Below, piece by piece: positions 11,446-57,224 of a stretch of 64,000 nt of DNA (position 1 is the first letter of the stretch; the number at the start of each line of letters is the position of its first letter). This DNA comes from Escherichia coli (GTDB taxonomy: Bacteria; Pseudomonadota; Gammaproteobacteria; Enterobacterales; Enterobacteriaceae), in the NCBI RefSeq assembly GCF_003018255.1, contig NZ_CP027440.1, one strand, 5' to 3'. A program made the translations under genes and the position numbers. Under the pieces are notes generated by a model, which was not told the origin of the DNA, made no database searches, and saw only the letters and a list, made by a program, of their open reading frames with translations.

Positions 11446-11460
11446 TACTTTTGAGCCAAA

Positions 11461-11612: not shown

Positions 11613-11650
11613 CGTTGAAACTGCTGGTTTTGTGTGCCACATCCGGCATA

Positions 11651-30293: not shown

Positions 30294-30325
30294 CTGACGA
30301 AAGTCAGTTCAATTTTCTAAAGACG

Positions 30326-30356
30326 AAAAAAAACCCCGCAGCAGCGGGGTTTTTTA
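30326..30356. terminator. bidirectional terminator between matP and ompA
   Basis: aaaaaaaaccccgc-agca-gcggggtttttta. Confidence 0.8.
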
Positions 30357-30368
30357 CCAGACGAGAAC

Positions 30369-31421
30369 TTAAGCCTGCGGCTGAGTTACAACGTCTTTGA
30401 TGCCTTTAACTTCGATCTCTACGCGACGATCCGGAGCCAGGCAATCGATCAGTGCAGCACGCTGTTTCACGTTGTCACAGGTGTTGCCAGTAACCGGGTT
30501 GGATTCGCCCATACCACGTGCGGAGATTTTGTCTGCCGGGATACCTTTAGAGATCAGGTAATCAACAACGGACTGAGCACGACGCTCGGACAGAGCCTGG
30601 TTATAAGCGTCAGAACCGATGCGGTCAGTGTAACCCAGAACAACTACGGAACCGTCTTTCGGATCCAGGTTGCTCAGCTGGCTGTACAGCTGATCCAGAG
30701 CAGCCTGACCTTCCGGTTTCAGGGTTGCTTTGTTGAAGGTGAACAGAACGTCAGACTTCAGAGTGAAGTGCTTGGTCTGTACTTCCGGTGCCGGAGCTGG
30801 AGCCGGAGCAACTACTGGAGCTGCTTCGCCCTGACCGAAACGGTAGGAAACACCCAGGCTCAGCATGCCGTTGTCCGGACGAGTGCCGATGGTGTGTGCA
30901 TCACCGATGTTGTTGGTCCACTGGTATTCCAGACGGGTAGCGATTTCAGGAGTGATCGCATACTCAACACCGCCAGCGAAGACCGGAGAAACGCCGGTGT
31001 CGTGGTCTTTAAAGGATGCGCCACCAGGTACGTTAGCCTTGGTGTCTGCACGCCATACCATACCACCCAGACGAGTGTAGATGTCCAGATCGTCAGTGAT
31101 TGGGTAACCCAGTTTAGCGGTCAGCTGAACGCCCTGAGCTTTGTATGCGCCGTTGATGTTGTCGCCTTTGTACGGCATACGACCTAACCAGTCGTAACCC
31201 ATTTCAAAGCCAACATACGGGTTAACCTGGTAACCACCAAAAGCACCTGCACCCAGTTGGTTTTCGTGGGTCGGACCATTGTTAGGAATAAAACCAGTGT
31301 CATGGTACTGGGACCAGCCCAGTTTAGCACCAGTGTACCAGGTGTTATCTTTCGGAGCGGCCTGCGCTACGGTAGCGAAACCAGCCAGTGCCACTGCAAT
31401 CGCGATAGCTGTCTTTTTCAT
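30369..31421 (-). CDS. ompA: outer membrane protein A (variant surface-loop allele)
   Basis: ORF track 30369..31508; start at ATG giving [21 protein letters not shown]; APAPAPAP hinge and OmpA-like C-terminal domain. Confidence 0.95.
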
Positions 31422-31776
31422 TTTTTGCGCCTCGTTATCATCCAAAATACGCCATGAATATCTCCAACGAGATAACACGGTTAAATCCTTCACCGGGGAT
31501 CTGCTCAATATTAACTCTACCGATATCTTCGGCTTATGCCGAGCACCCCTGGCGATGTAAAGTCTACAACGTAGTTGAAAACTTACAAGTGTGAACTCCG
31601 TCAGGCATATGAAAAAAAAGTCTTGTATAAGGTACGTTTAATCTTTTTTGTCAGCGACAATTTACAGAAGAAAATCGCGGAAACCGCTTCAGACAAGCCT
31701 CCGCAAGGAAAATTAGTCACGACTGAAAGCATTGGCTGGGCGACAAAAAAAGTTCCAGGATTAATCCTAAATTTAC

Positions 31777-32286
31777 TTAATGATACAAATTAGAGTGAAT
31801 TTTTAGCCCGGAAAGTTGTCTCGTTGCGTGAGAGGATGCGCTTACCGGACGCATAATAAACCCCATAGCGTTACCTTCATTTGCCGCATCAACAAGTTCA
31901 GCATGCTCTTCTGCAGTCAAATCATCTGCCAACCAACCGATCACCACGCTGTAATTGCCCGTGCGTAAAGCGCGAACCATTGACTCCACGGTGTGGCAAG
32001 GGGAGAGCTGGCTAATCTGCATTACTTTCGTTAAGGGTAGCCCAGATGCCTGAACCCATTCGCGACTCAGTTTTTGTTGCGGTGTTAACCAGAGTTGCCA
32101 GCGCGATTGCTGACCGAGTTGCTGTAACAATGGCAACAGTAGAAGTTGCGTCATCATGGGCTGATCTTCGCGATAGACAACTTCACTGATAAGCCCGGCT
32201 GTAGTGTTTTCCGTAGAGACACGCGCAATTTTACTTGCTGCGGATGAGAACGACGAAGAACGATGTGCATAGCCTGAAGTGTACAT
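31777..32286 (-). CDS. sulA: SOS cell division inhibitor SulA
   Basis: ORF track 31777..32292; start giving [20 protein letters not shown]. Confidence 0.95.
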
Positions 32287-32308
32287 AATCAATCCAGCCC
32301 CTGTGAGT

Positions 32309-32328
32309 TACTGTATGAATGTACAGTA
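32309..32328. promoter_or_regulatory. LexA operator (SOS box) of sulA
   Basis: taCTGTatgaatgtACAGta, a near-perfect CTGT-N8-ACAG palindrome 23 bp upstream of sulA start. Confidence 0.85.
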
Positions 32329-32504
32329 CATCCAGTGACGACAAAGATCAACTCTATTTTCGGAAAGAGCCTCGCAAATTTTGTCGTTGGTGACGGGAAA
32401 ACATAAATTAATCTTGCCCCTTAAGAATAAGTTGCCTATTTTCGTAGTTAACGGATCCGTTAATGTGAATCATTCTTTTATGTTATGATTTTAAAAGGAA
32501 TTTT

Positions 32505-33134
32505 ATGAAAAGCCTCTCCTATAAGCGGATCTATAAATCACAAGAATACCTGGCAACGTTGGGCACAATTGAATACCGATCATTGTTTGGTAGTTACAGC
32601 CTGACCGTTGACGACACGGTGTTTGCGATGGTTTCTGATGGTGAGTTGTATCTTCGGGCTTGTGAGCAAAGTGCACAGTACTGTGTAAAACATCCGCCTG
32701 TCTGGCTGACATATAAAAAGTGTGGCCGATCCGTTACCCTCAATTACTATCGGGTTGATGAAAGTCTATGGCGAAATCAACTGAAGCTGGTGCGTCTGTC
32801 GAAATATTCTCTCGATGCAGCGCTGAAAGAGAAAAGCACGCGCAATACCCGGGAAAGACTGAAAGATTTGCCCAATATGTCTTTTCATCTGGAAGCGATT
32901 CTCGGGGAGGTGGGGATTAAGGATGTACGGGCGTTACGTATACTTGGGGCAAAAATGTGTTGGTTGCGACTGCGGCAGCAAAACAGTCTGGTGACAGAAA
33001 AGATTCTGTTTATGCTTGAAGGGGCCATTATCGGTATTCATGAAGCTGCGCTCCCGGTGGCACGCCGCCAGGAGCTTGCAGAATGGGCTGACTCTCTTAC
33101 GCCAAAACAGGAGTTTCCTGCGGAACTTGAGTAA
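32505..33134 (+). CDS. sxy: competence regulator Sxy/TfoX
   Basis: 209 aa; MKSLSYKRIYKSQEYLATLGTIEYRSLFGSYSL. Confidence 0.92.
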   Translation: MKSLSYKRIYKSQEYLATLGTIEYRSLFGSYSLTVDDTVFAMVSDGELYLRACEQSAQYCVKHPPVWLTYKKCGRSVTLNYYRVDESLWRNQLKLVRLSKYSLDAALKEKSTRNTRERLKDLPNMSFHLEAILGEVGIKDVRALRILGAKMCWLRLRQQNSLVTEKILFMLEGAIIGIHEAALPVARRQELAEWADSLTPKQEFPAELE

Positions 33135-35250
33135 TCTGGCGTTGCAGACGACCAATCTCTGGCAGTAATGCAATCAATAACCCAACTTGTTGTACGACCA
33201 GAGGTTCTTTGCTGTCTGCCCGTGGTTCAAGTTGCTGCATCCGCTGTTTCAGGCCAGCTAATGCCTGATTGACGCGTTCTTCATCAGCAGGTTGATGATG
33301 TAGCGCGTCATCAACATAGCAAACTGCGTCATCAAGAAACGCCAGAATTTCAGGATTAGTTAACTGCTCCCGGTGAGCACCGAGGGCTGAGATATAGCTG
33401 GTAAACGTATGGTTAAGGCACAGCAACCGAAACGCGGCTTCGCGAATTTGCGGGGTAACGTTCGGTTCGCTGGACATATTTGATACCACCGACGCCAGTT
33501 CAGCATCACGGTTGTGTGCATCGCGGCGGGCAATACGATACGCCAGACGGTTATCACGCCCCTGATGGTATTGTTCCAGTATGGCATCGAGATACCGGCA
33601 GTTGGCCTCTGTGGCGCGTTCGAGCATTCGCGGCAGATTGCGAAACTTCCAGTCAGGCCAGATGTAGCTCACTGCCGCCCACGCAATGGCACAACCAATC
33701 AGCGTATCGATTACGCGAGGTAACGCCACTTCAAAACCTTCACCCAGCAAGTTGAAACACAGTAGCACCAAAAGTGTGATGAACATCGTTGCATGGGCGT
33801 ATTGCACGTTACGGAAGGCAAAAAAGAGCACGCCGGTAATAACCAGCAGCACCAGCTGCCCTTCCAGTGATGGCACAAACCACAGCACAGGAATACCAAT
33901 TGCGATACCTACCAGCGTACCAATAATCCTTAACTTCAGGCGGTGGCGCGTGGCGTTATAGTTTGGCTGGCAGACAAACAAACTTGTCAGCAAGATCCAA
34001 TACCCGTGATGCATTCCGGTTATCTGAATGATGGCGTAGCCGAAGCACAACACCAGCGACATTCTTACCGCATGACGGAAGAGGGCGGATTCCGGCGTGA
34101 AGTGACGGCTAAGACGCAGCCAGATATCACTCAATCCGTGCGGGCTGTCATCAGCGAGCTCATTTTCGTCATTATTATGGGGCAGTGCCTGGGCCTGTTC
34201 TGATTCAATTGTTGCCAGTTGGGCATCAATGGCACGTAAATTGTTCAGTAAAAATCCCAGTGTTTTGAGTAAATCAGCAGGAGCGCCGTTATCGCGCATC
34301 CGCTCCAGCGCAGCATCAATATGCGTAAAAGCGCGCTCAAAATGCGGATCATGTTGATAAGGCTGACGCAGCAAAATACAGCGTGACAGTTGCTGGCACG
34401 CCTGGCCCTGCATCGACATCAGCCGCTGAAAACGGAACAGCACGTCGCTGTGGCGAAAATGTTCACGCAATGTTTGATATTGAATATGAGAAGAGCTGGC
34501 ACGCTCGTGAATATCCTGTGCGACAAAGTAATAATGCAGTGTGCGACGCGTTCCTCGTTGACCACGATCGCCACGTAAGCGGGTCAGCAGCGAGAGTTTC
34601 GTCTGATTCAATGTCGCCATCAGCTGACCGTTGGCGAGAGCCAAATCGTACAGCGGTGCCTGGCTTTCATCTTCAATATCAGGATCAAACATGCGCGACT
34701 TGAGCTCAAGATAACGCGCCAGTTGTTCATAGCAACGCGCCAGGTTGTCCTGCAGCGGGCGGACCGGGAACAGCAGATGACCAATAAGTGTCAGGACGTT
34801 GTACCAGACGGCACCGGCCAGAAGATACATCGGCTGCTGATACCAGTGCTCATACAGTGATGTTCCCAACATAGTGTAAATGGCGATCAGCAATGCACCG
34901 AAGGCAATTGTTGCATAGCGTTGACCCAGACCGCCGAGCAAAATGAAGCCGCTGGTAGAGAGCGTTAAGCCAATCGCAAATAGCCAGGGCCAGGGAAACA
35001 GCAATTCTACTGAGGCCGAGGCGATAAAAAAGCAGAACAGCGTAATGATGAGGTTACGCAAACGTCCCGCCAGTCGGTCATCGAGATCGGTCAGCGCCGC
35101 TGCCACCATCCCAAGCGTCAGCGGAATCGTCAGTTTTACATCACCCAGCCACCACGGAAACGCTGTGGTTCCACAAAGCGCAATAAAAATACGCGCGTAA
35201 TACAGCCAGGCGCTGTTCCAGGTATAGCGTTTGAGCAAAGGACTTAGCAT
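33097..35250 (-). CDS. yccS: inner membrane protein YccS (putative efflux/FUSC-like transporter)
   Basis: ORF track 33097..35259 (720 aa); two in-frame ATGs 9 nt apart, so start is ambiguous (35250 or 35259). Confidence 0.88.
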   Translation of the reverse strand: MLSPLLKRYTWNSAWLYYARIFIALCGTTAFPWWLGDVKLTIPLTLGMVAAALTDLDDRLAGRLRNLIITLFCFFIASASVELLFPWPWLFAIGLTLSTSGFILLGGLGQRYATIAFGALLIAIYTMLGTSLYEHWYQQPMYLLAGAVWYNVLTLIGHLLFPVRPLQDNLARCYEQLARYLELKSRMFDPDIEDESQAPLYDLALANGQLMATLNQTKLSLLTRLRGDRGQRGTRRTLHYYFVAQDIHERASSSHIQYQTLREHFRHSDVLFRFQRLMSMQGQACQQLSRCILLRQPYQHDPHFERAFTHIDAALERMRDNGAPADLLKTLGFLLNNLRAIDAQLATIESEQAQALPHNNDENELADDSPHGLSDIWLRLSRHFTPESALFRHAVRMSLVLCFGYAIIQITGMHHGYWILLTSLFVCQPNYNATRHRLKLRIIGTLVGIAIGIPVLWFVPSLEGQLVLLVITGVLFFAFRNVQYAHATMFITLLVLLCFNLLGEGFEVALPRVIDTLIGCAIAWAAVSYIWPDWKFRNLPRMLERATEANCRYLDAILEQYHQGRDNRLAYRIARRDAHNRDAELASVVSNMSSEPNVTPQIREAAFRLLCLNHTFTSYISALGAHREQLTNPEILAFLDDAVCYVDDALHHQPADEERVNQALAGLKQRMQQLEPRADSKEPLVVQQVGLLIALLPEIGRLQRQITQVPQETPVLA

Positions 35251-35268
35251 AAAGGCCATATTAGTGGA

Positions 35269-35715
35269 TTATTGGAAACGACGACGTGCATTGGCTTCGC
35301 GCGCAGCTTGCGCTGTTTCTACCGATACCACGCGACGACCGACCGGCCATAGTGCAATAGCGGCAATTTTAAAGTTCGCAATACCGACAGGAATGCCAAT
35401 GATGGAAATACATTGTGCGATGCCCGTTGCAATGTGCATCAGGCATAACCACCAGCCAAAGAAAATCAGCCAGAAAATATTCAATACCGTACCGCCAGTA
35501 TTTAGCAGCACATTTTTGCCAGCCGGGTTCAGTTCATCGACATGAATAGCTTCATTGCCATAAGGCACCAGAGACAGTTTGGTGATCTCCCAGCAGGATC
35601 GTGTCAGTGGTAAGGTAAAAATCAGCACAATACTGACCAGAGTCGCCAACAGCCAGCCCAGAGTGGTGGCAAATCCGCCAAGCACAAAGTTCAGAATGTT
35701 CAAAACGGTACGCAT
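35269..35715 (-). CDS. yccF: inner membrane protein YccF
   Basis: 148 aa hydrophobic; MRTVLNILNFVLGGFATTLGWLL. Confidence 0.9.
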   Translation of the reverse strand: MRTVLNILNFVLGGFATTLGWLLATLVSIVLIFTLPLTRSCWEITKLSLVPYGNEAIHVDELNPAGKNVLLNTGGTVLNIFWLIFFGWWLCLMHIATGIAQCISIIGIPVGIANFKIAAIALWPVGRRVVSVETAQAAREANARRRFQ

Positions 35716-35837
35716 AAAACCTCGCTTTACTGTGGTTTTCAGTAATGGGCGGCAATTGTAACGTTTTTTTGGGCTGGAGCACGTTTTCTCTGACGGTTAC
35801 ACTGATAAGAAATAATTTCGTGTGGATCTACAGAGTC

Positions 35838-37892
35838 ATGGAACTGAAAGCGACAACGCTTGGAAAACGTCTGGCACAGCACCCTTACGATCGGGCGGTG
35901 ATCCTCAATGCCGGGATTAAAGTCTCCGGCGATCGCCACGAATACCTTATTCCTTTCAATCAATTACTGGCGATTCACTGTAAGCGCGGTCTGGTATGGG
36001 GCGAACTGGAGTTTGTACTGCCGGACGAAAAAGTGGTGCGTCTGCACGGCACCGAATGGGGCGAGACGCAGCGTTTTTACCATCATCTTGATGCTCACTG
36101 GCGGCGGTGGAGTGGCGAGATGAGCGAAATTGCGTCTGGCGTTTTACGTCAGCAACTGGATTTGATTGCCACGCGCACCGGAGAAAATAAATGGCTGACG
36201 CGTGAGCAAACCTCTGGCGTGCAGCAACAAATCCGCCAGGCTTTGTCGGCGTTACCATTGCCGGTTAACCGACTGGAAGAATTCGATAACTGCCGTGAGG
36301 CGTGGCGTAAATGTCAGGCCTGGTTGAAGGACATTGAAGGCGCTCGGTTGCAGTATAATCAGGCGTATACCGAAGCCATGCTTACCGAGTATGCGGATTT
36401 TTTCCGCCAGGTCGAGTCTTCACCGCTGAATCCGGCGCAGGCCCGGGCAGTCGTTAATGGCGAGCATTCTCTGTTAGTGCTGGCAGGTGCAGGAAGCGGA
36501 AAAACGTCGGTGCTGGTGGCCCGTGCTGGCTGGTTACTGGCGCGTGGTGAAGCGTCTCCTGAGCAAATTTTATTGCTGGCGTTTGGTCGCAAAGCCGCTG
36601 AAGAGATGCACGAGCGTATTCGAGAACGACTACATACCGAAGACATTACCGCACGCACGTTTCATGCGCTGGCGCTGCATATTATTCAGCAGGGCAGCAA
36701 AAAAGTTCCGATAGTCAGCAAACTGGAAAATGATACCGCTGCCCGTCATGAACTTTTTATTGCTGAGTGGCGCAAGCAATGCAGCGAAAAGAAAGCGCAG
36801 GCGAAGGGCTGGCGGCAATGGCTGACGGAAGAAATGCAGTGGTCAGTGCCAGAAGGTAATTTCTGGGATGATGAAAAATTACAGCGTCGTCTTGCCTCTC
36901 GCCTCGATCGCTGGGTAAGTCTGATGCGGATGCACGGTGGTGCACAGGCAGAAATGATTGCCAGTGCACCCGAAGAGATTCGCGATCTGTTCAGTAAACG
37001 TATCAAGTTGATGGCCCCGTTATTAAAAGCCTGGAAAGGTGCGCTGAAGGCAGAAAACGCTGTCGATTTTTCGGGCCTTATTCACCAGGCGATTGTGATT
37101 CTGGAGAAAGGTCGCTTTATCAGCCCGTGGAAGCATATTCTGGTTGATGAATTTCAGGATATCTCGCCGCAGCGTGCAGCGTTGTTAGCGGCATTACGCA
37201 AGCAAAATAGTCAAACGACGTTGTTCGCTGTTGGTGATGACTGGCAGGCGATTTACCGATTCAGCGGTGCGCAAATGTCGCTTACCACGGCTTTCCATGA
37301 AAACTTTGGTGAAGGTGATCGCTGTGATTTAGACACGACCTACCGTTTTAACAGTCGTATCGGTGAGGTGGCAAACAGGTTTATTCAGCAGAACCCAGGC
37401 CAGCTTAAAAAGCCGCTAAACAGCTTAACCAATGGAGACAAAAAAGCCGTCACGTTATTGGATGAGGGTCAACTTGACGCTTTGCTGGATAAACTCTCTG
37501 GTTATGCCAAACCGGAAGAGCGCATTCTGATCCTGGCGCGTTACCATCACATGAGGCCTGCCAGCCTGGAAAAAGCAGCAACACGCTGGCCGAAGTTGCA
37601 AATCGACTTTATGACCATTCATGCCAGCAAAGGGCAACAGGCGGATTACGTCATCATCGTTGGCTTGCAGGAGGGGAGTGATGGTTTTCCGGCTGCGGCG
37701 CGGGAGTCGATTATGGAAGAGGCGCTACTGCCACCGGTTGAGGATTTCCCGGACGCTGAAGAACGGCGGTTAATGTACGTGGCGCTGACCCGGGCACGCC
37801 ATCGGGTATGGGCACTGTTTAACAAAGAGAATCCCTCTCCCTTTGTGGAAATACTGAAAAATCTGGATGTGCCGGTGGCGAGAAAACCGTAA
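35838..37892 (+). CDS. helD: DNA helicase IV
   Basis: ORF track 35745..37892; start at ATG 35838 giving MELKATTLGKRLAQHPYDRAVIL; Walker A GAGSGKT. Confidence 0.93.
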   Translation: MELKATTLGKRLAQHPYDRAVILNAGIKVSGDRHEYLIPFNQLLAIHCKRGLVWGELEFVLPDEKVVRLHGTEWGETQRFYHHLDAHWRRWSGEMSEIASGVLRQQLDLIATRTGENKWLTREQTSGVQQQIRQALSALPLPVNRLEEFDNCREAWRKCQAWLKDIEGARLQYNQAYTEAMLTEYADFFRQVESSPLNPAQARAVVNGEHSLLVLAGAGSGKTSVLVARAGWLLARGEASPEQILLLAFGRKAAEEMHERIRERLHTEDITARTFHALALHIIQQGSKKVPIVSKLENDTAARHELFIAEWRKQCSEKKAQAKGWRQWLTEEMQWSVPEGNFWDDEKLQRRLASRLDRWVSLMRMHGGAQAEMIASAPEEIRDLFSKRIKLMAPLLKAWKGALKAENAVDFSGLIHQAIVILEKGRFISPWKHILVDEFQDISPQRAALLAALRKQNSQTTLFAVGDDWQAIYRFSGAQMSLTTAFHENFGEGDRCDLDTTYRFNSRIGEVANRFIQQNPGQLKKPLNSLTNGDKKAVTLLDEGQLDALLDKLSGYAKPEERILILARYHHMRPASLEKAATRWPKLQIDFMTIHASKGQQADYVIIVGLQEGSDGFPAAARESIMEEALLPPVEDFPDAEERRLMYVALTRARHRVWALFNKENPSPFVEILKNLDVPVARKP

Positions 37893-37895
37893 GAA

Positions 37896-37917
37896 ACAGG
37901 TGGCGTTTGCCACCTGT
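37896..37917. terminator. bidirectional hairpin between convergent helD and mgsA
   Basis: acaggtggc-gttt-gccacctgt. Confidence 0.6.
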
Positions 37918-37923
37918 GCAATA

Positions 37924-38382
37924 TTACTTCAGACGGTCCGCGAGATAACGCTGATAATCGGGGATCAGAATATCGACCGCGTCGTTGAAATGCGGCGACT
38001 GGATAATGAAGTCTGCCGTTGCCACGTTGGTGGCAACCGGAATGTTCCATACCGTCGCCAGACGCAGCAAGGCTTTCACGTCAGGATCGTGCGGAACGGC
38101 ATTTAGTGGGTCCCAGAAGAAAATCAATACATCAATTTTCCCTTCTGAGATCAATGCGCCAACCTGCTGGTCACCCCCCATTGGGCCACTCAACATCGCG
38201 TTGACGTTCATGCCGGTTGCACGGGAAATCAAGTTACCGGTAGTGCCTGTTGCATACAGTACGTGTTGTTCCAGTAACGGTTGATGTCGTTCCACCCAGC
38301 TCATCAGCATTTGTTTGCAGTGATCGTGTGCCACCAGCGCAATATGTTTCCGCGCAGGTAAAGTGCGTGTCGTCAGTTCCAT
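37924..38382 (-). CDS. mgsA: methylglyoxal synthase
   Basis: ORF track 37924..38391; start giving [23 protein letters not shown]. Confidence 0.95.
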
Positions 38383-38477
38383 AATGTACATCCGTAGTTA
38401 ACTTTCCTACAGATTACTGTAAGCACTTATCGCTGCAAGAGAAAGACCGAAAAAGCCTGCGCACAGGCACAAAAATC

Positions 38478-39140
38478 TCAGGAGGATGGTTGTTTTTCCG
38501 CCCATTGCAGGAAAGTATTTCGCGTTTGTGGGTCAGCCAGTTTAAACCAATACTTCAGCCGTTGTTCTGTGAGCACCTGAGACTGCGGCGGAATAGCATC
38601 CAGCTCGGAAACACCCGAAAGCAGCGTACTGTCATCTGCCATCATCGTGGCAAATTGCGGTAGTGAAGCGCGTTTCGCGGATTTGTTATAGCGTTCAACC
38701 TCGACCTCATAATCAATCGTTTTTGCAGTTGAGGTAATGGCGAGAATATCCAGCTTTACCGGAATCGGCGTCGCATCGCCATCCAACAATTCAAGGCGCG
38801 GCGCGGCATCAAAATGGTTAGCTTCCCGCTCATTCTCCAGGCGAGGCAGGCGAAAATTGACCTGGTTGATGAGCTGGGTATTAAAACTAACCACCAGTGG
38901 AGGGGAGATATAGAGCCGTTCTTCACTATTGGAAAGATGAATCGTCTTCTCAACGCGAAACACTAACTGATGCGGTCCATTGTCCAGTTCAATGCTGTCC
39001 GCACCACGCAGCAGAGAGCTGGAAACCTTCTTACCGTCGAGTACCAGAAGATCGACATCGGTAGAAAGCCGCAGCGTGGTGGCAAAAACGGATACCGGCA
39101 AACATAATGCAATCAAGGTGGTCACGATGCCGGTTTTCAT
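38478..39140 (-). CDS. yccT: periplasmic protein YccT (UPF0319/DUF2057)
   Basis: 220 aa; N-terminal signal peptide [20 protein letters not shown]. Confidence 0.88.
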
Positions 39141-39312
39141 AGATAGCTCCTGTTAAAAGACCGCCCGAATAATAATGTGTCAAAATTTTTCTTTAATCAT
39201 ACTTACTAACATATAGATATATTTCCCGCTTTTGCTCTCATTCATTCGTATTAGCTGCATGGTTGGCATGTCGGCTTTGTCGTACACTTTGTTAAACAGT
39301 CTGGAGGAAATA

Positions 39313-39768
39313 ATGAAAGAAACCGATATTGCAGGCATTTTAACGTCCACTCACACCATTGCGCTGGTGGGGGCAAGCGACAAACCCGATCGTCCCAGCT
39401 ATCGCGTGATGAAATATCTACTCGACCAGGGGTATCACGTCATTCCTGTTTCGCCAAAAGTTGCCGGCAAAACACTGCTGGGCCAGCAGGGGTATGGCAC
39501 GCTGGCAGACGTTCCGGAAAAAGTCGATATGGTCGATGTTTTCCGTAATTCAGAAGCGGCGTGGGGCGTGGCGCAGGAAGCTATCGCCATTGGTGCGAAA
39601 ACCCTCTGGATGCAACTGGGGGTGATTAATGAGCAAGCGGCAGTGCTGGCGCGTGATGCAGGGCTAAACGTGGTGATGGATCGCTGCCCGGCGATTGAGA
39701 TCCCTCGTCTGGGCCTGGCAAAAAAAAAAAATACCCGGAAGGCGAAAACCTTCCGGGTATGTTTATGA
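39313..39768 (+). CDS. yccU: CoA-binding domain protein YccU; C-terminal tail here reads through an A12 tract
   Basis: ORF track 39232..39768; start at ATG 39313 giving [20 protein letters not shown]; reading frame continues ...[19 protein letters not shown] through the terminator hairpin. Confidence 0.85.
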
Positions 39769-39771
39769 GGA

Positions 39772-40146
<375 letters not shown>

Positions 40147-41337
40147 TTACATGACGCGACAGGCAAACCCTTTCAGATATAGCCCTTCCGGGTAGGTAGC
40201 GATCACCGGATGATCGGCTGCCTGACGGAACTGCTCTATAAATTGTACATCACGACCGGCATCAATTGCGGCATCCGCGATGATTTTCTGAAATAAATCG
40301 CTGGTCATCAGACCGGAACAGGAGAAAGTCAGGAGAACACCGCCTTCATTCAGCAACTGAATCGCCAGCATGTTGATGTCTTTATAACCACGACACGCGC
40401 CCATCAACTGGCTTTTATTCTCAACAAACTTCGGCGGGTCCATCACGATAACGTCAAATTTTTCACCGCGATCGCGATAAGTACGCAGCAATTTAAAGAC
40501 ATCATCACGGACAAACTCAGCCTTGCTCAGATCCAGTTTGTTCAGCTCAACGTTCTGCCGTGCAATATCCAGCGCTTCGTGGGAGGTATCAACGCTGACA
40601 ACCTGGCTGCAACCGCCCATCAATGCCGATACGGCGAAACCACCGGTATAGGAGAAACAGTTAAGTACGCGTTTATTTTCGACGTAGCGGCGGGTAGCCA
40701 GGCGGCTGTCACGCTGGTCCAGGTAGTAGCCCGTTTTGTGTCCGTGCTGAATATCCACCAGCAGTTTCATGCCGTGTTCTTCAATCGGCAGCAGGGCAGG
40801 CGGCAACTCGCCGGTGATGGGGCCCTGAGTCAGCTCCATCCCTTCTTTTTTACGTACCGCGACGTCGCTGCGATCGTAAATAGCACATTCCGGGTACAGC
40901 GTTTGCAGGGCGCTAATTAATGCCGCGCGCTGATACTCTGCGCCAGCACTCAGCAGTTGCAGCACCAGAAAATTACCGAAACGATCGATAGTAATACCCG
41001 GCAGGCCATCAGATTCTCCGGCGATTAAACGATAGCTGTCGAGGCCATCTTTTTGCGCCAGCCAGTCACGCCATTTTTGTGCTTGCTGCAAACGGCGGGT
41101 AAAAAAAGCAATGTCGATAGACTCTGACGGGTCAAACGTCCAGACGCGCGCCCGGATTTGCGAAGCTGGCGAATAAGCGCCGCGTGCTAACCATTTTCCC
41201 TGATGATCAACAATATCGATGGTTTCACCGAGGCTGGCTTTACCTTCCATGCGGGCAACGGCCCCGGAAAAGACCCACGGATGGCGACGAAGTAATGATT
41301 TTTCGCGCCCTTTGGCTAACACTAAACGTACACTCAT
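40147..41337 (-). CDS. rlmI: 23S rRNA m5C1962 methyltransferase RlmI (YccW)
   Basis: 396 aa; [27 protein letters not shown]. Confidence 0.93.
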
Positions 41338-41431
41338 AATTTACTTTTCTGTCGATGCAAAGAAATGGGCGTCATTGTCCGGAGTTTTCCATGGATTTGC
41401 AACGCGTCCATTAAGGATAAGGAGAGCAGCA

Positions 41432-41710
41432 ATGTCGAAAGTCTGCATAATTGCCTGGGTTTACGGGCGAGTTCAGGGCGTAGGATTCCGCTACACCACG
41501 CAGTACGAAGCGAAAAAACTGGGACTAACCGGGTACGCCAAAAATCTTGACGATGGCAGCGTGGAAGTGGTTGCCTGCGGTGACGAAGGGCAGGTGGAAA
41601 AATTAATGCAGTGGTTAAAAAGTGGCGGCCCGCGTTCAGCGCGTGTGGAACGGGTGCTTAGCGAGCCGCATCATCCCTCCGGGGAGTTAACGGATTTTCG
41701 TATCCGTTAA
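41432..41710 (+). CDS. acyP: acylphosphatase (YccX)
   Basis: ORF track 41219..41710; start at ATG 41432 giving [27 protein letters not shown] (acylphosphatase signature); 92 aa. Confidence 0.9.
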
Positions 41711-42036
41711 ATGCATTTTACCGGTTTAGGCAGGCCAGCAATTTTGGTGGCTTGCTTTGCCGGACCTTTCGGGAACAGTCGGTACAGATAGCGGCTATTG
41801 CCTTTCTCTTCGCCAAATTTATTCGCCATCGCTTTTACCAGCATACGAATCGCCGGAGAAGTATTGAATTCCAGATAGAAATCACGCACAAAACGCACCA
41901 CTTCCCAGTGTTCTGGCGACAGCGCAATCCCTTCGTTCTCTGCAATCACCACCGCCAGTGGTTCACTCCACTGGCTGCTTTCTTTGAGATAGCCTTCGGT
42001 ATCCGTTTCTATCTCTTTACCTTCGAAGATCAGCAT
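41707..42036 (-). CDS. tusE: sulfurtransferase TusE (YccK)
   Basis: 109 aa; [18 protein letters not shown]; DsrC-like C-terminal ...PKPVKCI. Confidence 0.92.
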
Positions 42037-42127
42037 AATTCTTTACTACCTTAATCAGACTGGCGGCAGTGTAACAAAAAACAAAGCCCCGCATAAAGCG
42101 AGGCTCGGTAAGTAACCCTGGGCGAGA

Positions 42128-42787
42128 TTAATCGCGGCTGGCGAAGCCCAGAATGCTCAGCAGGCTGACGAAGATGTTGTACAGCGAAACATACAGGCTA
42201 ACCGTGGCACGAATATAGTTCGTTTCACCGCCATGAATGATGTTGCTGGTTTCAAACAAAATAGCGCCAGAGGAGATCAGAATGAAGACCGCGCTGATCG
42301 CCAGATGCAGAGCAGGCAGTTGCAGGAAGATATTAGCAACCATACCAATCAGCACCACCACAATACCCGCCATCAGCATACCGCCAAGGAATGACATATC
42401 TTTGCGGGTGGTCAGCACATACGCAGAGCAGCAGAAGAACACTAACGCCGTTCCGCCCAGTGCCATAGCGATTACGTCACCCATTCCGGCAGACAGATAG
42501 GTGTTCAGAATTGGTCCGAGGATATAACCCAGAAAACCGGTAAAGGCGAATGCGGAGATAATCCCGGTCGGCTTATTCGCCGTTTTGTAGGTCAGGAACA
42601 TCAAACCATACATACCCACCAGCGTCAGAATCAGACCCGGAGATGGCAGCATCAGCACCGTACTGGCAGTTGCGGTAATCGCCGAAAAGGCCAGCGTCAG
42701 GCTCAGCAGAAAATAGGTATTACGCAGCACCTTATGGGTGCTAAGCAGCGATGTACGGTCATGTGAAGAACTAACTATACGATCCAT
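42128..42787 (-). CDS. yccA: FtsH modulator YccA (BI-1 family membrane protein)
   Basis: 219 aa, 7-TM-like hydrophobic profile; sequence recognised. Confidence 0.93.
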
Positions 42788-42957
42788 TGAGTCACTCTCT
42801 ATGACAGATGTAATTAATTAAGCAGCATAATGATAATGTGGGAAGGTACACAGAAGTTTTACCCATCTTTACGCATTTGATCTGAAACAAGTTTCACAGC
42901 GGAGTCTCAGGTCATTAGGCAGTGATATAACGCCCTGAGAATTTCGACAGGCAAAAG

Positions 42958-42990
42958 AAAAAGGGGTTAGCATTTAGCTAACCCCTTATC
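42958..42990 (-). terminator. rho-independent terminator of serT
   Basis: stem aaggggttagc-attt-agctaacccctt; T-run on minus strand immediately 3' of the tRNA. Confidence 0.75.
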
Positions 42991-42995
42991 TTATT

Positions 42996-43083
42996 TGGCG
43001 GAAGCGCAGAGATTCGAACTCTGGAACCCTTTCGGGTCGCCGGTTTTCAAGACCGGTGCCTTCAACCGCTCGGCCACACTTCC
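42996..43083 (-). tRNA. serT: tRNA-Ser (anticodon UGA), 88 nt including encoded CCA
   Basis: minus strand reads GGAAGTGTGGCCGAGCGGTTGAAGGCACCGGTCTTGAAAACCGG...GGTTCGAATCTCTGCGCTTCCGCCA; long variable arm; anticodon loop CUUGAAA. Confidence 0.95.
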
Positions 43084-43509
43084 GGAATGACGCGCACTAT
43101 AAACATCCCGATGCAGCGTGTAAACCCCTAATTTGTTTGTTTGCCTGAAAAACAGCCAAAAGTGCATTGATAGCGTGAAATAACAGCAGATTGATCATTT
43201 CATCACCATGAATTCCTTCTCTTTTACTCGTTTAGCAATCGGCTAAACATCCCCACCGCCCGGTAAAAAGAAAAATAGGTCCATTTTTATCGCTAAAAGA
43301 TAAATCCACACAGTTTGTATTGTTTTGTGCAAAAGTTTCACTACGCTTTATTAACAATACTTTCTGGCGACGTGCGCCAGTGCAGAAGGATGAGCTTTCG
43401 TTTTCAGCATCTCACGTGAAGCGATGGTTTGCCTTGCTACAGGGACGTCGCTTGCCGACCATAAGCGCCCGGTGTCCTGCCGGTGTCGCAAGGAGAAGAG
43501 ACGTGCGAT

Positions 43510-44628
43510 ATGAATAACGAGGAAACATTTTACCAGGCCATGCGGCGTCAGGGCGTTACCCGACGCAGCTTTCTCAAATATTGCAGTCTGGCTGCCACGT
43601 CGCTGGGATTAGGCGCGGGGATGGCACCAAAGATTGCCTGGGCGCTGGAGAACAAACCGCGCATTCCGGTGGTATGGATCCACGGTCTGGAATGCACCTG
43701 CTGTACCGAATCTTTTATCCGCTCCGCTCACCCGCTGGCAAAGGACGTCATCCTTTCCCTGATTTCCCTCGATTACGACGATACTTTGATGGCTGCCGCC
43801 GGAACCCAGGCGGAAGAAGTCTTTGAAGACATCATCACGCAATACAATGGCAAATATATCCTCGCAGTAGAAGGTAATCCGCCGCTGGGCGAGCAGGGGA
43901 TGTTCTGTATCAGCAGCGGTCGACCGTTTATTGAGAAACTCAAACGTGCCGCTGCCGGAGCCAGTGCGATTATCGCCTGGGGAACCTGCGCGTCCTGGGG
44001 CTGCGTGCAGGCCGCGCGACCCAATCCGACGCAGGCAACGCCTATCGACAAAGTCATCACCGACAAACCTATTATCAAAGTACCTGGCTGCCCGCCGATC
44101 CCGGATGTGATGAGCGCCATCATTACTTACATGGTGACCTTTGATCGCTTGCCAGATGTCGACAGAATGGGCCGTCCGTTGATGTTCTATGGTCAGCGTA
44201 TCCACGATAAATGCTATCGCCGTGCTCACTTCGACGCCGGAGAGTTCGTCCAGAGTTGGGATGATGACGCTGCCCGCAAAGGTTACTGCCTGTACAAAAT
44301 GGGCTGCAAAGGGCCTACCACCTATAACGCCTGTTCCTCCACACGCTGGAACGATGGCGTTTCCTTCCCGATCCAGTCAGGTCACGGCTGCCTGGGTTGT
44401 GCGGAAAATGGTTTCTGGGATCGCGGTTCGTTCTACAGCCGCGTGGTCGATATTCCACAAATGGGTACCCATTCCACCGCCGACACCGTCGGTTTAACCG
44501 CGCTTGGCGTGGTGGCAGCGGCTGTTGGTGTGCACGCAGTCGCCAGCGCCGTTGACCAGCGCAGGCGTCATAACCAGCAACCTACAGAAACCGAACATCA
44601 GCCAGGCAATGAGGATAAACAGGCATGA
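43510..44628 (+). CDS. hyaA: [NiFe] hydrogenase 1 small subunit, Tat signal
   Basis: ORF track 43483..44628; start at ATG 43510 giving [29 protein letters not shown] (twin-arginine motif). Confidence 0.95.
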
Positions 44629-46418
44629 GCACTCAGTACGAAACTCAGGGATACACCATCAACAATGCCGGACGCCGCCTGGTGGTCGACCCGATTACGC
44701 GCATTGAAGGCCACATGCGCTGCGAAGTGAATATTAACGATCAGAATGTGATCACCAATGCCGTCTCCTGCGGCACCATGTTTCGCGGGCTGGAGATCAT
44801 CCTGCAAGGGCGCGACCCGCGCGATGCGTGGGCGTTCGTTGAACGTATCTGCGGCGTCTGTACTGGCGTACACGCTCTGGCTTCGGTTTACGCCATCGAA
44901 GATGCCATCGGTATTAAAGTGCCGGACAACGCCAATATCATCCGCAACATTATGCTGGCAACGCTCTGGTGCCACGATCATCTGGTGCACTTCTATCAGC
45001 TTGCCGGGATGGACTGGATCGATGTGTTAGATGCGCTGAAAGCCGACCCGCGGAAAACCTCCGAACTGGCGCAAAGCCTCTCCTCATGGCCGAAATCATC
45101 CCCTGGCTATTTCTTCGACGTACAAAACCGCCTGAAGAAATTCGTTGAAGGCGGGCAGTTGGGGATCTTCCGCAATGGCTACTGGGGGCACCCGCAGTAC
45201 AAACTGCCGCCAGAAGCCAACCTGATGGGCTTTGCCCACTATCTCGAAGCTCTCGATTTCCAGCGTGAAATTGTCAAAATCCACGCGGTCTTTGGTGGTA
45301 AAAACCCGCATCCAAACTGGATTGTCGGCGGGATGCCTTGCGCCATTAACATTGACGAAAGCGGCGCAGTCGGGGCGGTCAATATGGAACGCCTGAACCT
45401 GGTGCAGTCGATCATTACCCGTACGGCGGATTTCATTAACAACGTGATGATCCCCGACGCCTTAGCCATCGGCCAGTTCAACAAACCGTGGAGCGAAATC
45501 GGCACGGGTCTTTCTGATAAATGTGTCCTCAGCTACGGCGCATTCCCGGATATTGCCAACGACTTTAGTGAGAAAAGTCTGCTGATGCCTGGCGGCGCGG
45601 TGATTAACGGCGACTTCAACAATGTGCTGCCAGTGGATTTGGTTGATCCGCAGCAGGTGCAGGAGTTTGTCGATCACGCCTGGTATCGTTATCCCAACGA
45701 TCAGGTCGGGCGTCATCCGTTCGATGGCATCACCGACCCGTGGTACAACCCCGGCGATGTCAAAGGCAGCGATACCAACATTCAGCAGCTGAATGAACAG
45801 GAACGCTACTCGTGGATCAAAGCGCCACGCTGGCGCGGTAATGCGATGGAAGTGGGGCCGCTGGCACGCACGTTAATCGCTTATCACAAAGGCGATGCGG
45901 CGACCGTTGAGTCGGTCGATCGCATGATGTCGGCGTTGAACCTGCCGCTTTCCGGCATCCAGTCAACGTTAGGCCGCATTTTGTGTCGCGCGCACGAAGC
46001 GCAGTGGGCCGCAGGCAAGTTACAATATTTCTTCGACAAGCTGATGACCAATCTCAAAAACGGCAATCTCGCCACCGCCTCCACTGAGAAGTGGGAACCA
46101 GCAACCTGGCCGACAGAGTGCCGTGGTGTCGGCTTTACCGAAGCGCCGCGCGGAGCGTTAGGCCACTGGGCCGCCATTCGCGATGGCAAGATTGATCTCT
46201 ACCAGTGCGTGGTGCCGACCACCTGGAACGCCAGCCCGCGCGATCCTAAAGGGCAAATTGGCGCTTATGAAGCGGCGCTGATGAACACCAAAATGGCGAT
46301 CCCCGAGCAACCGCTGGAGATCCTGCGTACTCTGCACAGCTTTGACCCGTGCCTCGCCTGTTCAACACACGTGCTGGGCGACGACGGTAGCGAGCTGATC
46401 TCCGTGCAGGTGCGTTAA
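44625..46418 (+). CDS. hyaB: [NiFe] hydrogenase 1 large subunit
   Basis: 597 aa; N-terminal RIEGH and C-terminal DPCLACSTH nickel-binding motifs. Confidence 0.96.
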
Positions 46419-46436
46419 CAGCGAAGGAGAATCATC

Positions 46437-47144
46437 ATGCAACAGAAAAGCGACAACGTTGTCAGTCACTATGTCTTTGAAGCACCCGTGCGGATATGGC
46501 ACTGGCTGACGGTGTTATGCATGGCGGTGTTGATGGTCACCGGTTACTTCATCGGCAAACCGCTGCCTTCGGTCAGCGGTGAGGCGACGTATCTGTTTTA
46601 CATGGGCTATATCAGGTTGATTCACTTCAGCGCCGGGATGATTTTTACCGTGGTCTTGCTGATGCGGATCTACTGGGCTTTTGTCGGCAATCGCTACTCA
46701 CGCGAGCTTTTCATCGTGCCAGTATGGCGCAAAAGCTGGTGGCAGGGCGTGTGGTATGAAATCCGCTGGTACCTGTTTCTGGCAAAACGTCCGAGTGCCG
46801 ATATAGGTCATAACCCCATCGCCCAGGCGGCGATGTTCGGCTATTTCCTGATGTCGGTATTTATGATCATCACCGGCTTTGCGCTCTACAGCGAACACAG
46901 CCAGTACGCTATTTTTGCGCCGTTTCGTTATGTGGTGGAATTTTTCTACTGGACGGGGGGCAACTCAATGGACATTCACAGCTGGCATCGGCTGGGGATG
47001 TGGCTGATTGGCGCGTTTGTGATCGGCCATGTCTACATGGCGCTGCGTGAAGACATTATGTCCGACGACACGGTGATCTCCACTATGGTCAACGGCTACC
47101 GTAGCCACAAATTTGGCAAAATAAGTAACAAGGAGCGTTCATGA
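46437..47144 (+). CDS. hyaC: hydrogenase 1 cytochrome b subunit
   Basis: 235 aa membrane protein with conserved His ligands. Confidence 0.93.
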
Positions 47145-47728
47145 GCGAGCAACGCGTGGTGGTAATGGGGCTGGGCAACCTGCTGTGGGCCGATGAAGGC
47201 TTCGGCGTGCGGGTGGCGGAACGGCTGTATGCCCATTACCACTGGCCCGAGGATGTGGAGATTGTCGATGGCGGTACTCAGGGACTGAACTTGCTGGGGT
47301 ATGTCGAAAGCGCCAGTCACTTGTTGATCCTCGATGCCATTGATTACGGGCTGGAACCCGGAACGCTGCGAACATATGCCGGAGAACGCATTCCGGCTTA
47401 TCTCAGCGCGAAGAAAATGAGTCTGCACCAGAACAGCTTCTCCGAAGTGCTGGCGCTGGCAGATATCCGCGGACATCTGCCAGCACATATTGCCCTCGTC
47501 GGTCTGCAACCCGCAATGCTCGACGACTACGGCGGTAGCCTGAGCGAACTGGCGCGGGAGCAACTGCCCGCTGCGGAACAGGCGGCGCTGGCGCAGCTGG
47601 CTGTGTGGGGAATTGTGCCGCAACCGGCTAATGAATCGCGCTGTCTCAATTATGACTGTCTGTCGATGGAAAATTACGAAGGCGTTCGCTTGCGCCAGTA
47701 CCGGATGACGCTGGAGGAGCAGGGATGA
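47141..47728 (+). CDS. hyaD: hydrogenase 1 maturation endopeptidase
   Basis: 195 aa; [16 protein letters not shown] motif. Confidence 0.93.
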
Positions 47729-48123
47729 GCAACGACACGCCATTTGATGCGTTGTGGCAACGAATGCTGGCGCGCGGCTGGACGCCGGTCAGTGAATCCC
47801 GCCTTGAGGACTGGCTCACGCAAGCGCCAGACGGCGTGGTGTTATTAAGCAGTGACCCGAAACGCACGCCAGAGGTCAGCGATAATCCGGTAATGATTGG
47901 CGAATTATTGCGCGAGTTTCCAGACTTTACATGGCAGGTAGCGATTGCTGACCTTGAGCAGAGCGAAGCCATCGGCGATCGCTTTGGCGTCTTTCGCTTT
48001 CCCGCCACATTAGTATTTACCGGCGGAAACTATCGCGGCGTGCTGAATGGTATTCACCCGTGGGCGGAACTGATAAACCTGATGCGCGGGCTTGTCGAAC
48101 CGCAGCAGGAGCGTGCCTCATGA
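47725..48123 (+). CDS. hyaE: hydrogenase 1 operon protein HyaE (thioredoxin-like chaperone)
   Basis: 132 aa; 4-nt overlaps with hyaD and hyaF. Confidence 0.9.
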
Positions 48124-48977
48124 GCGAAACTTTTTTCCATCTGCTGGGGCCAGGAACGCAACCGAACGATGACAGTTTCAGCATGAATCCACTGCCGATC
48201 ACCTGTCAGGTGAATGATGAACCGAGTATGGCGGCCCTGGAGCAATGTGCTCACAGCCCGCAGGTGATTGCGCTATTAAACGAGTTACAACATCAACTAA
48301 GCGAGCGCCAGCCGCCGCTGGGCGAGGTGCTGGCAGTCGATCTGTTAAATCTCAACGCCGACGATCGTCACTTTATCAATACGCTTCTCGGGGAAGGGGA
48401 AGTGTCAGTGCGCATTCAGCAGGCTGACGACAGTGAAAGTGAAATACAGGAGGCGATCTTCTGCGGATTATGGCGGGTGCGCAGACGTCGTGGCGAACAG
48501 TTGCTGGAAGACAAACTGGAGGCTGGCTGCGCACCGCTGGCGTTGTGGCAGGCGGCAACGCAAAACGTCTTGCCAACAGACTCGTTGCTACCGCCGCCCA
48601 TCGATGGCCTGATGAATGGCCTACCGTTGGCCCATGAATTACTGGCACATGTACGTAACCCCGACGCGCAGCCGCACAGCATTAATCTGACGCAATTGCC
48701 CATCAGCGAAGCTGACCGGCTTTTTCTCTCACGTCTCTGTGGGCCGGGAAATATTCAGATTCGTACCATTGGCTATGGCGAGAGCTATATCAACGCCACG
48801 GGGTTACGCCATGTCTGGCATTTACGCTGTACGGACACCTTAAAAGGCCCGTTAATGGAAAGTTATGAAATCTGCCCAATACCGGAAGTGGTGCTGGCAG
48901 CGCCAGAAGATTTGGTCGACTCTGCGCAGCGGCTTAGCGAGGTATGTCAGTGGCTGGCGGAAGGTGCACCGACGTAA
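48120..48977 (+). CDS. hyaF: hydrogenase 1 operon protein HyaF
   Basis: ORF track 48060..48977; start at ATG 48120 giving [18 protein letters not shown]. Confidence 0.9.
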
Positions 48978-49110
48978 AAAGACGGTAAGTATCGCTTTCA
49001 GTCTTATGAATATCGCAATCGGCGAATACCTCTGGTCGTAGAGTTTCAGGATAAAGAGGGAGATCTACCATTATCGGGTTATTTTTCTCTCTTCGCCTAC
49101 AGGAGTGCGC

Positions 49111-50655
49111 ATGTGGGATGTCATTGATTTATCGCGCTGGCAGTTTGCACTGACCGCGCTGTATCACTTTTTATTTGTACCCCTTACCCTGGGGCTGATT
49201 TTTTTGCTGGCTATCATGGAAACCATTTACGTGGTCACCGGCAAAACAATCTACCGCGATATGACGCGCTTCTGGGGTAAGCTCTTCGGTATCAACTTTG
49301 CTCTTGGCGTGGCTACCGGCCTGACCATGGAGTTTCAGTTTGGTACTAACTGGTCATTCTATTCCAACTATGTGGGCGATATTTTTGGCGCACCGCTGGC
49401 GATGGAAGCATTAATGGCCTTCTTCCTCGAATCCACCTTTGTCGGGCTGTTCTTCTTCGGCTGGCAGCGGCTGAATAAATACCAGCACCTGCTGGTGACG
49501 TGGCTGGTGGCGTTCGGTTCAAATCTCTCTGCATTGTGGATATTGAATGCCAACGGTTGGATGCAATACCCGACCGGTGCGCATTTTGATATCGACACCC
49601 TGCGTATGGAGATGACCAGTTTCAGCGAGTTGGTCTTTAACCCGGTCAGCCAGGTGAAATTTGTGCACACCGTAATGGCGGGCTACGTGACCGGGGCCAT
49701 GTTTATTATGGCGATCAGCGCCTGGTATTTACTGCGCGGACGGGAGCGCGATGTTGCATTACGCTCGTTTGCCATCGGTTCCGTCTTCGGTACTCTGGCG
49801 ATTATCGGCACGCTGCAACTCGGAGACAGTTCTGCGTATGAAGTCGCGCAAGTACAACCGGTAAAACTGGCGGCGATGGAAGGGGAGTGGCAAACGGAAC
49901 CTGCACCTGCACCGTTCCATGTGGTTGCCTGGCCGGAACAGGATCAAGAGCGTAACGCCTTTGCTATCAAAATTCCCGCGCTGCTAGGGATCCTCGCCAC
50001 TCACTCATTAGATAAACCCGTGCCGGGTCTGAAGAATTTGATGGCTGAAACCTACCCACGCTTGCAACGCGGACGTATGGCCTGGCTGTTAATGCAGGAA
50101 ATATCGCAAGGCAATCGAGAGCCGCATGTGTTGCAGGCATTCCGGGAGCTGGAAGGCGACCTGGGCTACGGCATGTTGCTCTCCCGCTATGCGCCGGATA
50201 TGAATCATGTCACAGCCGCACAGTACCAGGCGGCGATGCGTGGCGCGATACCTCAGGTTGCGCCGGTATTCTGGAGTTTCCGCATCATGGTGGGCTGTGG
50301 TTCCCTGCTGCTACTGGTGATGCTGATTGCGCTTGTCCAGACGCTGCGTGGCAAAATCGACCAGCATCGCTGGGTGCTGAAAATGGCGCTCTGGAGTTTG
50401 CCGCTGCCGTGGATTGCGATTGAAGCCGGGTGGTTTATGACCGAGTTTGGTCGTCAGCCGTGGGCGATACAGGACATCTTACCGACATACTCCGCGCACT
50501 CCGCCTTAACCACAGGACAACTGGCTTTCTCACTGATCATGATCGTAGGGCTTTACACCCTGTTCTTAATCGCCGAAGTCTACCTGATGCAGAAATATGC
50601 CCGTCTGGGGCCGAGCGCGATGCAGAGTGAACAACCGACGCAGCAACAGGGGTAA
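49111..50655 (+). CDS. appC: cytochrome bd-II ubiquinol oxidase subunit I
   Basis: ORF track 49105..50655; start giving [20 protein letters not shown]. Confidence 0.95.
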
Positions 50656-50666
50656 AGGAGAAAATC

Positions 50667-51803: not shown

Positions 51804-51815
51804 GGAGCAGGAACA

Positions 51816-51908
51816 ATGTGGTATTTACTTTGGTTCGTCGGCATTTTGTTGATGTGTTCGCTCTCCACCCTTGTGTTGGTATGGCTGGACCCGCGTCTGA
51901 AAAGTTAA
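51816..51908 (+). CDS. appX: cytochrome bd-II small subunit AppX (30 aa; below the ORF-track cutoff)
   Basis: read from DNA: MWYLLWFVGILLMCSLSTLVLVWLDPRLKS, preceded by aaggag RBS. Confidence 0.85.
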   Translation: MWYLLWFVGILLMCSLSTLVLVWLDPRLKS

Positions 51909-51987
51909 CGAACGTAAGCCTGATGTGGCGCATTAGCATCTCATCAGGCAATCAATAATGTCAGATATGAAAAGCGGAAACATATCG

Positions 51988-53286: not shown

Positions 53287-53291
53287 TGCAT

Positions 53292-53322
53292 AAAAAAGAG
53301 CATTCAGTTATCTGAATGCTCT
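53292..53322 (+). terminator. rho-independent terminator of the app operon
   Basis: stem agagcattcag-ttat-ctgaatgctct flanked by A6. Confidence 0.7.
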
Positions 53323-53353
53323 GAGGCTGATGACAAACGAAGAACTGTCTAAT

Positions 53354-53390
53354 GCGTAGACCGGAAAAGGCGTTCACGCCCCATCCGGCC
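53354..53390. repeat. single REP element
   Basis: gcgtagaccggaaaaggcgttcacgccccatccggcc, REP-like palindrome between convergent appA and etk. Confidence 0.7.
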
Positions 53391-53405
53391 ACCTTACCTT
53401 CAGTT

Positions 53406-55586: not shown

Positions 55587-55605
55587 CGTATTTTATAAAC
55601 TCAAA

Positions 55606-57179: not shown

Positions 57180-57224
57180 TGGTTTATATTTATCAGTCAA
57201 TGTAATGTTATGAATTACGTCAGG

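Follow-up and report, generated by a model that had tools for sequence, protein, structure and literature searches.

Does the OmpA protein encoded in a 64,000-nucleotide stretch of Escherichia coli DNA (contig NZ_CP027440.1 of assembly GCF_003018255.1; the whole stretch is hereafter the window) present the surface loops of K-12, and, if it does not, is the allele a novelty of this strain or a known form, and how did it come to occupy this locus? OmpA is an abundant eight-stranded barrel with four loops that form its exposed surface (PMC9560509). An earlier note, which compared the sequence with that of K-12, had proposed that loops 1, 2 and 3 of this protein are of a non-K-12 type and had called such loops phage and colicin receptor sites and immune targets, which is also how they are treated in the relevant parts of the literature (PMC9560509, PMC12259851). 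The explanation that we consider very probable combines an intact ompA gene, a standing polymorphism that includes a long loop 3 and a delta-type C-terminal domain, an altered exposed face of the protein, and a 5' part of the gene that was brought in by recombination.

The ompA gene and its differences from K-12

The gene lies between matP and sulA, as it does in K-12, and is read on the minus strand from an ATG at 31421 to a TAA at 30369-30371 (Table 1). An alternative open reading frame initiated by TTG extends to 31508; the ATG start gives the K-12 N-terminus exactly. The encoded protein has the full organization of the OmpA family, that is, a signal peptide, an N-terminal 8-stranded transmembrane domain (Pfam PF01389, OmpA_membrane, 266.7 bits, residues 23-199), a Pro-rich hinge, and a C-terminal OmpA/peptidoglycan-binding domain (PF00691, OmpA, 84.9 bits, residues 226-321). 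In the protein alignment, the signal peptide and the hinge, APAPAPAP, are the same as in K-12, the latter as the earlier note had held.

Upstream of the coding sequence, 3 sites (31494, 31635 and 31672) distinguish the leader and promoter region from its K-12 counterpart, and the region is identical to that of CFT073. A scan for consensus promoters upstream of ompA returned no minus-strand match, which we read as a limit of such a simple consensus scan because the region departs from K-12 at these three sites only. The Rfam scan of the window placed no RNA family inside or adjoining ompA. The expression signals look intact and, judging from its sequence and domain content, ompA is an intact, ordinary gene for an eight-stranded outer-membrane beta-barrel with a periplasmic peptidoglycan-binding domain.

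Table 1 Features of the window, with positions counted from its first nucleotide.
Feature	Position	Strand	Description and basis
ompA coding sequence	30369..31421	(-)	350-aa precursor; ORF and translation, Pfam
Loop 1 variable codon 46 (mature 25)	31284..31286	(-)	CCT Pro; K-12 AAC Asn
Loop 2 variable codons 87-89 (mature 66-68)	31155..31163	(-)	GAC AAC ATC = DNI; K-12 AGC GTT GAA = SVE
Loop 3 variable block, codons 129-139	31005..31037	(-)	11-residue block; K-12 SNVYGKN
Loop 4 typing site, codon 176	30894..30896	(-)	His, as in K-12; Asn in pattern II and in the sequenced ompA2 type strain
C-terminal domain codon 228 (mature 203)	30738..30740	(-)	ACC Thr; K-12 AAC Asn
C-terminal domain codon 276 (mature 251)	30594..30596	(-)	GCT Ala; K-12 GGT Gly
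Terminator-like intrinsic hairpin, 3' of ompA	30328..30355	(-)	CCCCGC-tgct-GCGGGG, then T run
ompA leader/promoter region	31422..31700	(-)	Presumed role, from K-12; mismatch lists
Left crossover interval (predicted)	30324..31011	.	Informative sites; 643 of 688 bp are ompA coding sequence, codons 138-350 and stop
Putative imported, mosaic tract, ~28 kb	30900..58704	.	ompA 5' half, sulA, sxy, yccS, helD, hya, app to gfc; mismatch counts and distance matrix
PyrD leader	16056-16129	(+)	Rfam
tRNA-Ser	42999-43083	(-)	Rfam
cspA-type thermoregulator leader, upstream of cspG	61903-62325	(+)	Rfam

The protein and the DNA were both aligned to the ompA gene of MG1655, fetched from NC_000913, which served as the K-12 reference. 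Nucleotide identity between the two genes is 95.1%, and 337 of the 346 aligned residues are identical. All three loops singled out in the earlier note differ as it had said: loop 1 carries N46P, loop 2 carries S87D, V88N and E89I in place of the K-12 SVE, and loop 3 is longer than in K-12, with S129A, Y132P, a four-residue insertion (GASF, 134-137) and a change from N to D at 139 (precursor numbering), so that the variable block comprises 11 residues in the window vs. 7 in K-12. The insertion is encoded by 12 nucleotides at 31011-31022. The periplasmic domain, described as conserved in the earlier note, is not entirely so, since N203T and G251A (mature numbering) fall in it.

The possibility that the differences are unreal, whether the K-12 sequence had been quoted wrongly or the window contains sequencing errors, is barely conceivable: the window protein is not identical to K-12 OmpA, the K-12 loops had been quoted correctly, every quoted difference is reproduced in the alignment to the NC_000913 gene, and independent complete genomes are annotated with the same protein, which is also found in a crystal structure.

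The observation that ompF, in contrast, is K-12-like stands as well, with 361 of 362 residues identical; at 4106-5194 (minus strand), the gene differs from K-12 by 15 nucleotides that change one residue (269, I vs. T). The window is colinear with K-12 and carries no IS insertions. Local differences from K-12 were observed along it. Between ssuE and pyrD, at about 15949-16025 of the window, the K-12 fimbrial operon elfADCG-ycbUVF (positions 997,575-1,004,667 of K-12, about 7 kb) is lacking, and it is only because of this absence that ompF falls within the window at all; CFT073, SA186 and JNE23-011 are arranged alike, so that lack of the operon is a common configuration outside K-12. Between pepN and ssuB, the segment 11447-11675 does not align with K-12; it contains an internal inverted similarity (11455-11525 vs. 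11564-11633), and Rfam places naRNA4/CssrE, a REP-element RNA, at 11527-11605 (plus strand, 82 bits). Finally, at about 61145-61153, the copy of IS1D that lies beside gfcA in K-12 is missing, and the K-12 alignment jumps from 1,049,777 to 1,050,546.

Allele class, prevalence and age of the long-loop form

Alignment to the known allele classes, which the earlier note had proposed as a check, assigns the protein to Liao (III, delta), to OmpA-long and to the ompA2 class. The residues P / DNI / 11-residue loop 3 block / H are those of outer-loop pattern III (PMC5413513, Table 3A, which counts position 25 among the outer-loop polymorphisms), which Liao 2017 assigned to CFT073 and to the septicemic O78 strain 789 (PMC5413513). 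The C-terminal domain, with A175, T203 and A251 of the mature protein (precursor A200, T228 and A276), is of the delta type (PMC5413513, Table 3B). Liao 2022 counted 41 isolates of type (III, delta), treats this type as equivalent to C1 of Nielsen et al. 2020, and has the ompA2 class of Power 2006 cover patterns II and III (PMC9560509).

The K-12 protein shares with that of the window the gene, its position, the architecture, the signal peptide and the hinge, and is typed as Liao (I, alpha), ompA1 and OmpA-short (PDB 1BXW, 1QJP and 9FZC); it has N rather than P in loop 1, SVE rather than DNI in loop 2, and N and G rather than T and A at mature positions 203 and 251. The length of loop 3 is what defines the short and long isoform classes (PMC12259851). 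The window protein, with a loop 3 that is 4 residues longer than in K-12, is of the OmpA-long type, and its barrel is that of 9FZD chain A, i.e. OmpA-long in complex with nanobody Nb39: identity is 100% over all 174 aligned barrel residues, four loops included, in a construct that consists of the transmembrane domain only, so that the delta C-terminal residues of the window fall outside this comparison. The 9FZD structure, at ~2.3 Å, is the reference for OmpA-long, for which the long sequence of highest frequency was selected; in the same study, some 86,000 E. coli genomes fall into two main OmpA groups, short and long (PMC12259851).

Among full-length proteins, the OmpA annotated in SA186 and 377323_2f (WP_001346420.1) is 100% identical to that of the window. 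CFT073, the exemplar of pattern III cited, according to the sections of PMC5413513 that concern it, by Gophna 2004 and Liao 2017, has a gene of 99.8% nucleotide identity and the same loops; its sole residue difference, A200V (mature 175), makes it Liao (III, gamma) rather than delta. The ompA2 type allele of Power 2006, from the bird isolate B194 (Liao pattern II), agrees with the window in loops 1-3 and differs from it in loop 4, where B194 has Asn and the window has His, so that the two are not identical. The ompA2 PCR, as summarized in the passage of PMC5413513 on this assay, primes on the segment coding for ANVPGGA; this segment is present in the window at 31005-31037, and the assay is predicted to be positive. 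The window belongs to the ompA2 class only in the broad, PCR-defined sense. JNE23-011 also encodes a long-loop, delta OmpA (WP_001563012.1), and its DNA is the same as that of the window from the stop codon to 30,899; relative to the window, its protein shows I114V, A129S and F137T, with SNVPGGASTKD as loop 3 instead of the window's 11-residue block, a combination of loops that corresponds to the unnamed pattern of Liao's isolate 256 (PMC5413513). A different kind of loop variation was seen in another E. coli OmpA of the same cluster (P0010), in which loop 2 contains a tandem three-residue duplication, SVESVE, in a short-isoform background.

Among 5,426 complete E. coli genomes, 969 contain ompA DNA that is at least 99% identical over the whole gene, and 2,058 (38%) contain long loop 3 DNA, 1,684 of these as exact matches to the 43-nt probe used (31003-31045). 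This frequency agrees with the 41-43% found in surveys by PCR and sequencing (PMC5413513). At least 1,000 contigs in the large public collection encode exactly the OmpA protein of the window. Five ompA-like places were also noticed on plasmids; one of them is on NZ_CP097216.1, a 4.7-kb E. coli plasmid, where a gene with the annotation 'outer membrane beta-barrel protein' matches nucleotides 199-554 of ompA at 90.7% identity.

Four OmpA sequences from the same 90% cluster, which are assigned to Salmonella enterica by their source labels (the cluster also supplied Yokenella and Shigella sequences), were aligned with the window. In all four, loop 2 reads DNI and loop 3 is long and of the xPGGxSxKD type, and in three of them P occupies the variable site of loop 1; overall identity is about 94%, the residues of loop 3 differ in detail, and there are several C-terminal substitutions. 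Because these proteins share DNI, the long loop 3 and, mostly, P with the window, the combination of N, SVE and a short loop in K-12 is probably the derived state within Escherichia.

The divergence from K-12 is unevenly distributed along the gene. The proportion of synonymous differences, pS, is 0.31 in loop codons compared to 0.076 for the strands and 0.079 for the C-terminal domain, i.e. about four times higher in the loops, whose boundaries for this split were approximated from what we take to be the 1BXW topology. Such a high pS fits old allelic segments that were long kept apart, as opposed to recent mutation. Non-synonymous changes are likewise found mostly in the loops (12.5 of 14.5 by the Nei-Gojobori count), and this clustering would fit loops that changed de novo, and recently, in the strain itself, through mutations and an insertion selected by phages or by immunity. 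We nevertheless hold such an origin to be highly improbable, given the identical protein on so many contigs, the identical loop 3 DNA in the 1,684 complete genomes, the elevated synonymous divergence of the same codons, and the similar loops of the Salmonella-labelled proteins. These observations point to a polymorphism that has long existed within the E. coli species and did not arise in this strain. OmpA has two major isoforms, both described long ago and both with solved structures, and the window allele is one of them; it is already known and not unusual.

Evidence for a probable recombination junction in ompA

No complete genome is more than 98.9% identical to the window over 20-44 kb, the 24 kb around ompA, while positions 1-20 kb are 100.0% identical to two E. 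coli genomes. An assignment of the window to Shigella or to a cryptic clade was considered and rejected: the low identity over 20-44 kb is due to mosaic structure, and the match of the first 20 kb, the colinearity with K-12 and the lack of IS insertions also oppose it.

The mosaic structure is apparent from comparison with JNE23-011. Positions 1-30,899 show 15 mismatches to this genome, 13 of which are confined to 21,799-22,252 (JNE112863 is also near-identical here), and positions 58,705-64,000 show 3, whereas the intervening 30,900-58,704 show 478 (1.7%). The left boundary was mapped with informative sites, defined as those at which JNE23-011 differs from the B2-like genomes CFT073, SA186 and 377323_2f, with the latter three in agreement. 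Up to 30,323, 32 consecutive informative sites follow JNE23-011, and from 31,012 onward, 16 consecutive sites follow the B2-like sequences; the part of the interval between them that is not ompA coding sequence is the ompA terminator.

To which of the two genomes the change belongs was assessed through distances to an outgroup. The distance from JNE23-011 to E14033 is 1.16% inside the tract and 1.07% and 1.04% in the flanks, whereas that from the window to E14033 rises from 1.14% to 1.77% inside the tract; at the same time, the distance from the window to CFT073 and SA186, which is 2.32% in the left flank, falls to about 1.5% within the tract. Because the distance between JNE23-011 and E14033 stays constant, whereas the window moves away from E14033 and toward CFT073 and SA186, the window genome is the likelier recombinant. 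On this evidence, the barrel-encoding 5' part of ompA would have been imported by homologous recombination as the left end of a B2-like tract of ~28 kb. The import would have displaced the long-loop variant native to the lineage (V93, SNVPGGASTKD), still present in JNE23-011 and JNE112863, such that in this strain loop 3 would have changed from SNVPGGASTKD to the 11-residue block of the window.

The polarity could be the reverse, i.e. the window could retain the original ompA of the lineage, with JNE23-011 and JNE112863 as the recombinants into which SNVPGGASTKD was imported. The comparison involves two closely related clone-mates and a single outgroup genome, and a search among complete genomes for an exact donor of the window tract yielded none, with an identity of 98.8% for the best of the listed matches that cover 31-48 kb in full, both of which leave some room for this alternative. 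We regard it as unlikely, in view of the unchanged distance of JNE23-011 to E14033 (1.07, 1.16 and 1.04% along the window) against the shift from 1.14 to 1.77% for the window, and of the approach of the tract to B2-type strains, which differ from the flanks of the window by 2.3%. The tract is patchy in the distance matrix, and several events or an unsampled donor may lie behind it.

A separate matter is whether the crossover fell in ompA by chance, as the end of a long neutral import, or was favoured by selection for switching loop 3 (S129A, T137F) together with I/V93. The junction lies within an interval of 688 bp that is 93% ompA, the residue changes between the OmpA proteins of the window and its clone-mate are found only in or adjoining loop 3, and single residue changes in loop 3 abolish nanobody binding (PMC12259851), all of which is compatible with selection. 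Against this, the tract spans about 28 kb with roughly 30 other genes, every import has to end at some point and strong conservation makes a gene well suited to homologous crossover, and recombination appears to be frequent here anyway, given the second small patch in uup. Selection on loop 3 and I/V93 accordingly seems to us an improbable cause of the junction, and the stronger version, in which the crossover was no accident and an OmpA-dependent phage, an antibody or a conjugation partner selected the window's loop 3 over the resident V93/SNVPGGASTKD, is quite doubtful. If true, a selected crossover would amount to a recent, datable switch of a surface loop between sub-variants of the long isoform. 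That the allele apparently marks the border of an import of ~28 kb whose crossover lies within ompA is the only detail of this locus that goes beyond the literature; it is strain-specific and is the expected behaviour for surface-protein genes of E. coli.

The uup patch itself (21799-22252) contains 13 SNPs relative to JNE23-011 in about 450 bp, inside an otherwise identical 30 kb, and looks like a second, small recombination patch.

Expected effects on recognition of OmpA

The allele would give the most abundant outer-membrane protein of this strain an exposed face different from that of K-12 and would alter its recognition by ligands that dock on the loops. The ligands concerned would be antibodies and nanobodies, for which the effect is documented in the literature, OmpA-dependent phages, for which it has been reported for ompA2, and probably colicins and the F-plasmid protein TraN. 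We infer that phages, colicins, TraN-gamma and antibodies that dock on OmpA recognise this strain differently from K-12.

The nanobodies provide the most direct comparison. Nb01 and Nb39 are strictly isoform-specific and contact all four loops, loop 3 extensively; Nb01 is specific for the short isoform and leaves the long one unbound (PMC12259851). Because the barrel sequence of the window is that of the crystallised antigen, its OmpA is expected to bind Nb39, and no binding of Nb01 is expected. With respect to phages, Power 2006 is reported, in the passage of PMC9560509 devoted to ompA2, to have found less phage lysis among ompA2 isolates. In K-12 OmpA, the loop 4 change G154D blocks conjugation dependent on F TraN as well as some phages (PMC10516633). 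A search for structures of, or papers on, phage receptor-binding proteins in complex with particular OmpA alleles retrieved nothing allele-specific.

Outside the loops, residue 203, one of those that differ from K-12, lies in a proposed dimerisation region and was correlated with hydrophobicity and biofilm formation (PMC9560509). Patterns I and II, despite differing in all four loops, were indistinguishable in the four surface-property assays described in the pertinent section of Liao 2022 (PMC9560509), and since the two behave alike in these assays, differences in the loops need not alter every phenotype.

In practical terms, reagents specific for OmpA-long, Nb39 among them, are predicted to recognise the strain, rather than those of the K-12 type, and its susceptibility to OmpA-dependent phages may differ from that of K-12, which bears on phage typing and therapy and on vaccines and diagnostics directed at OmpA. 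Beyond correct annotation, the allele matters little and belongs to the ordinary surface-antigen polymorphism of E. coli; the ompA junction would be a small example of the shuffling of surface-antigen alleles between E. coli phylogroups, a process that is already well documented.
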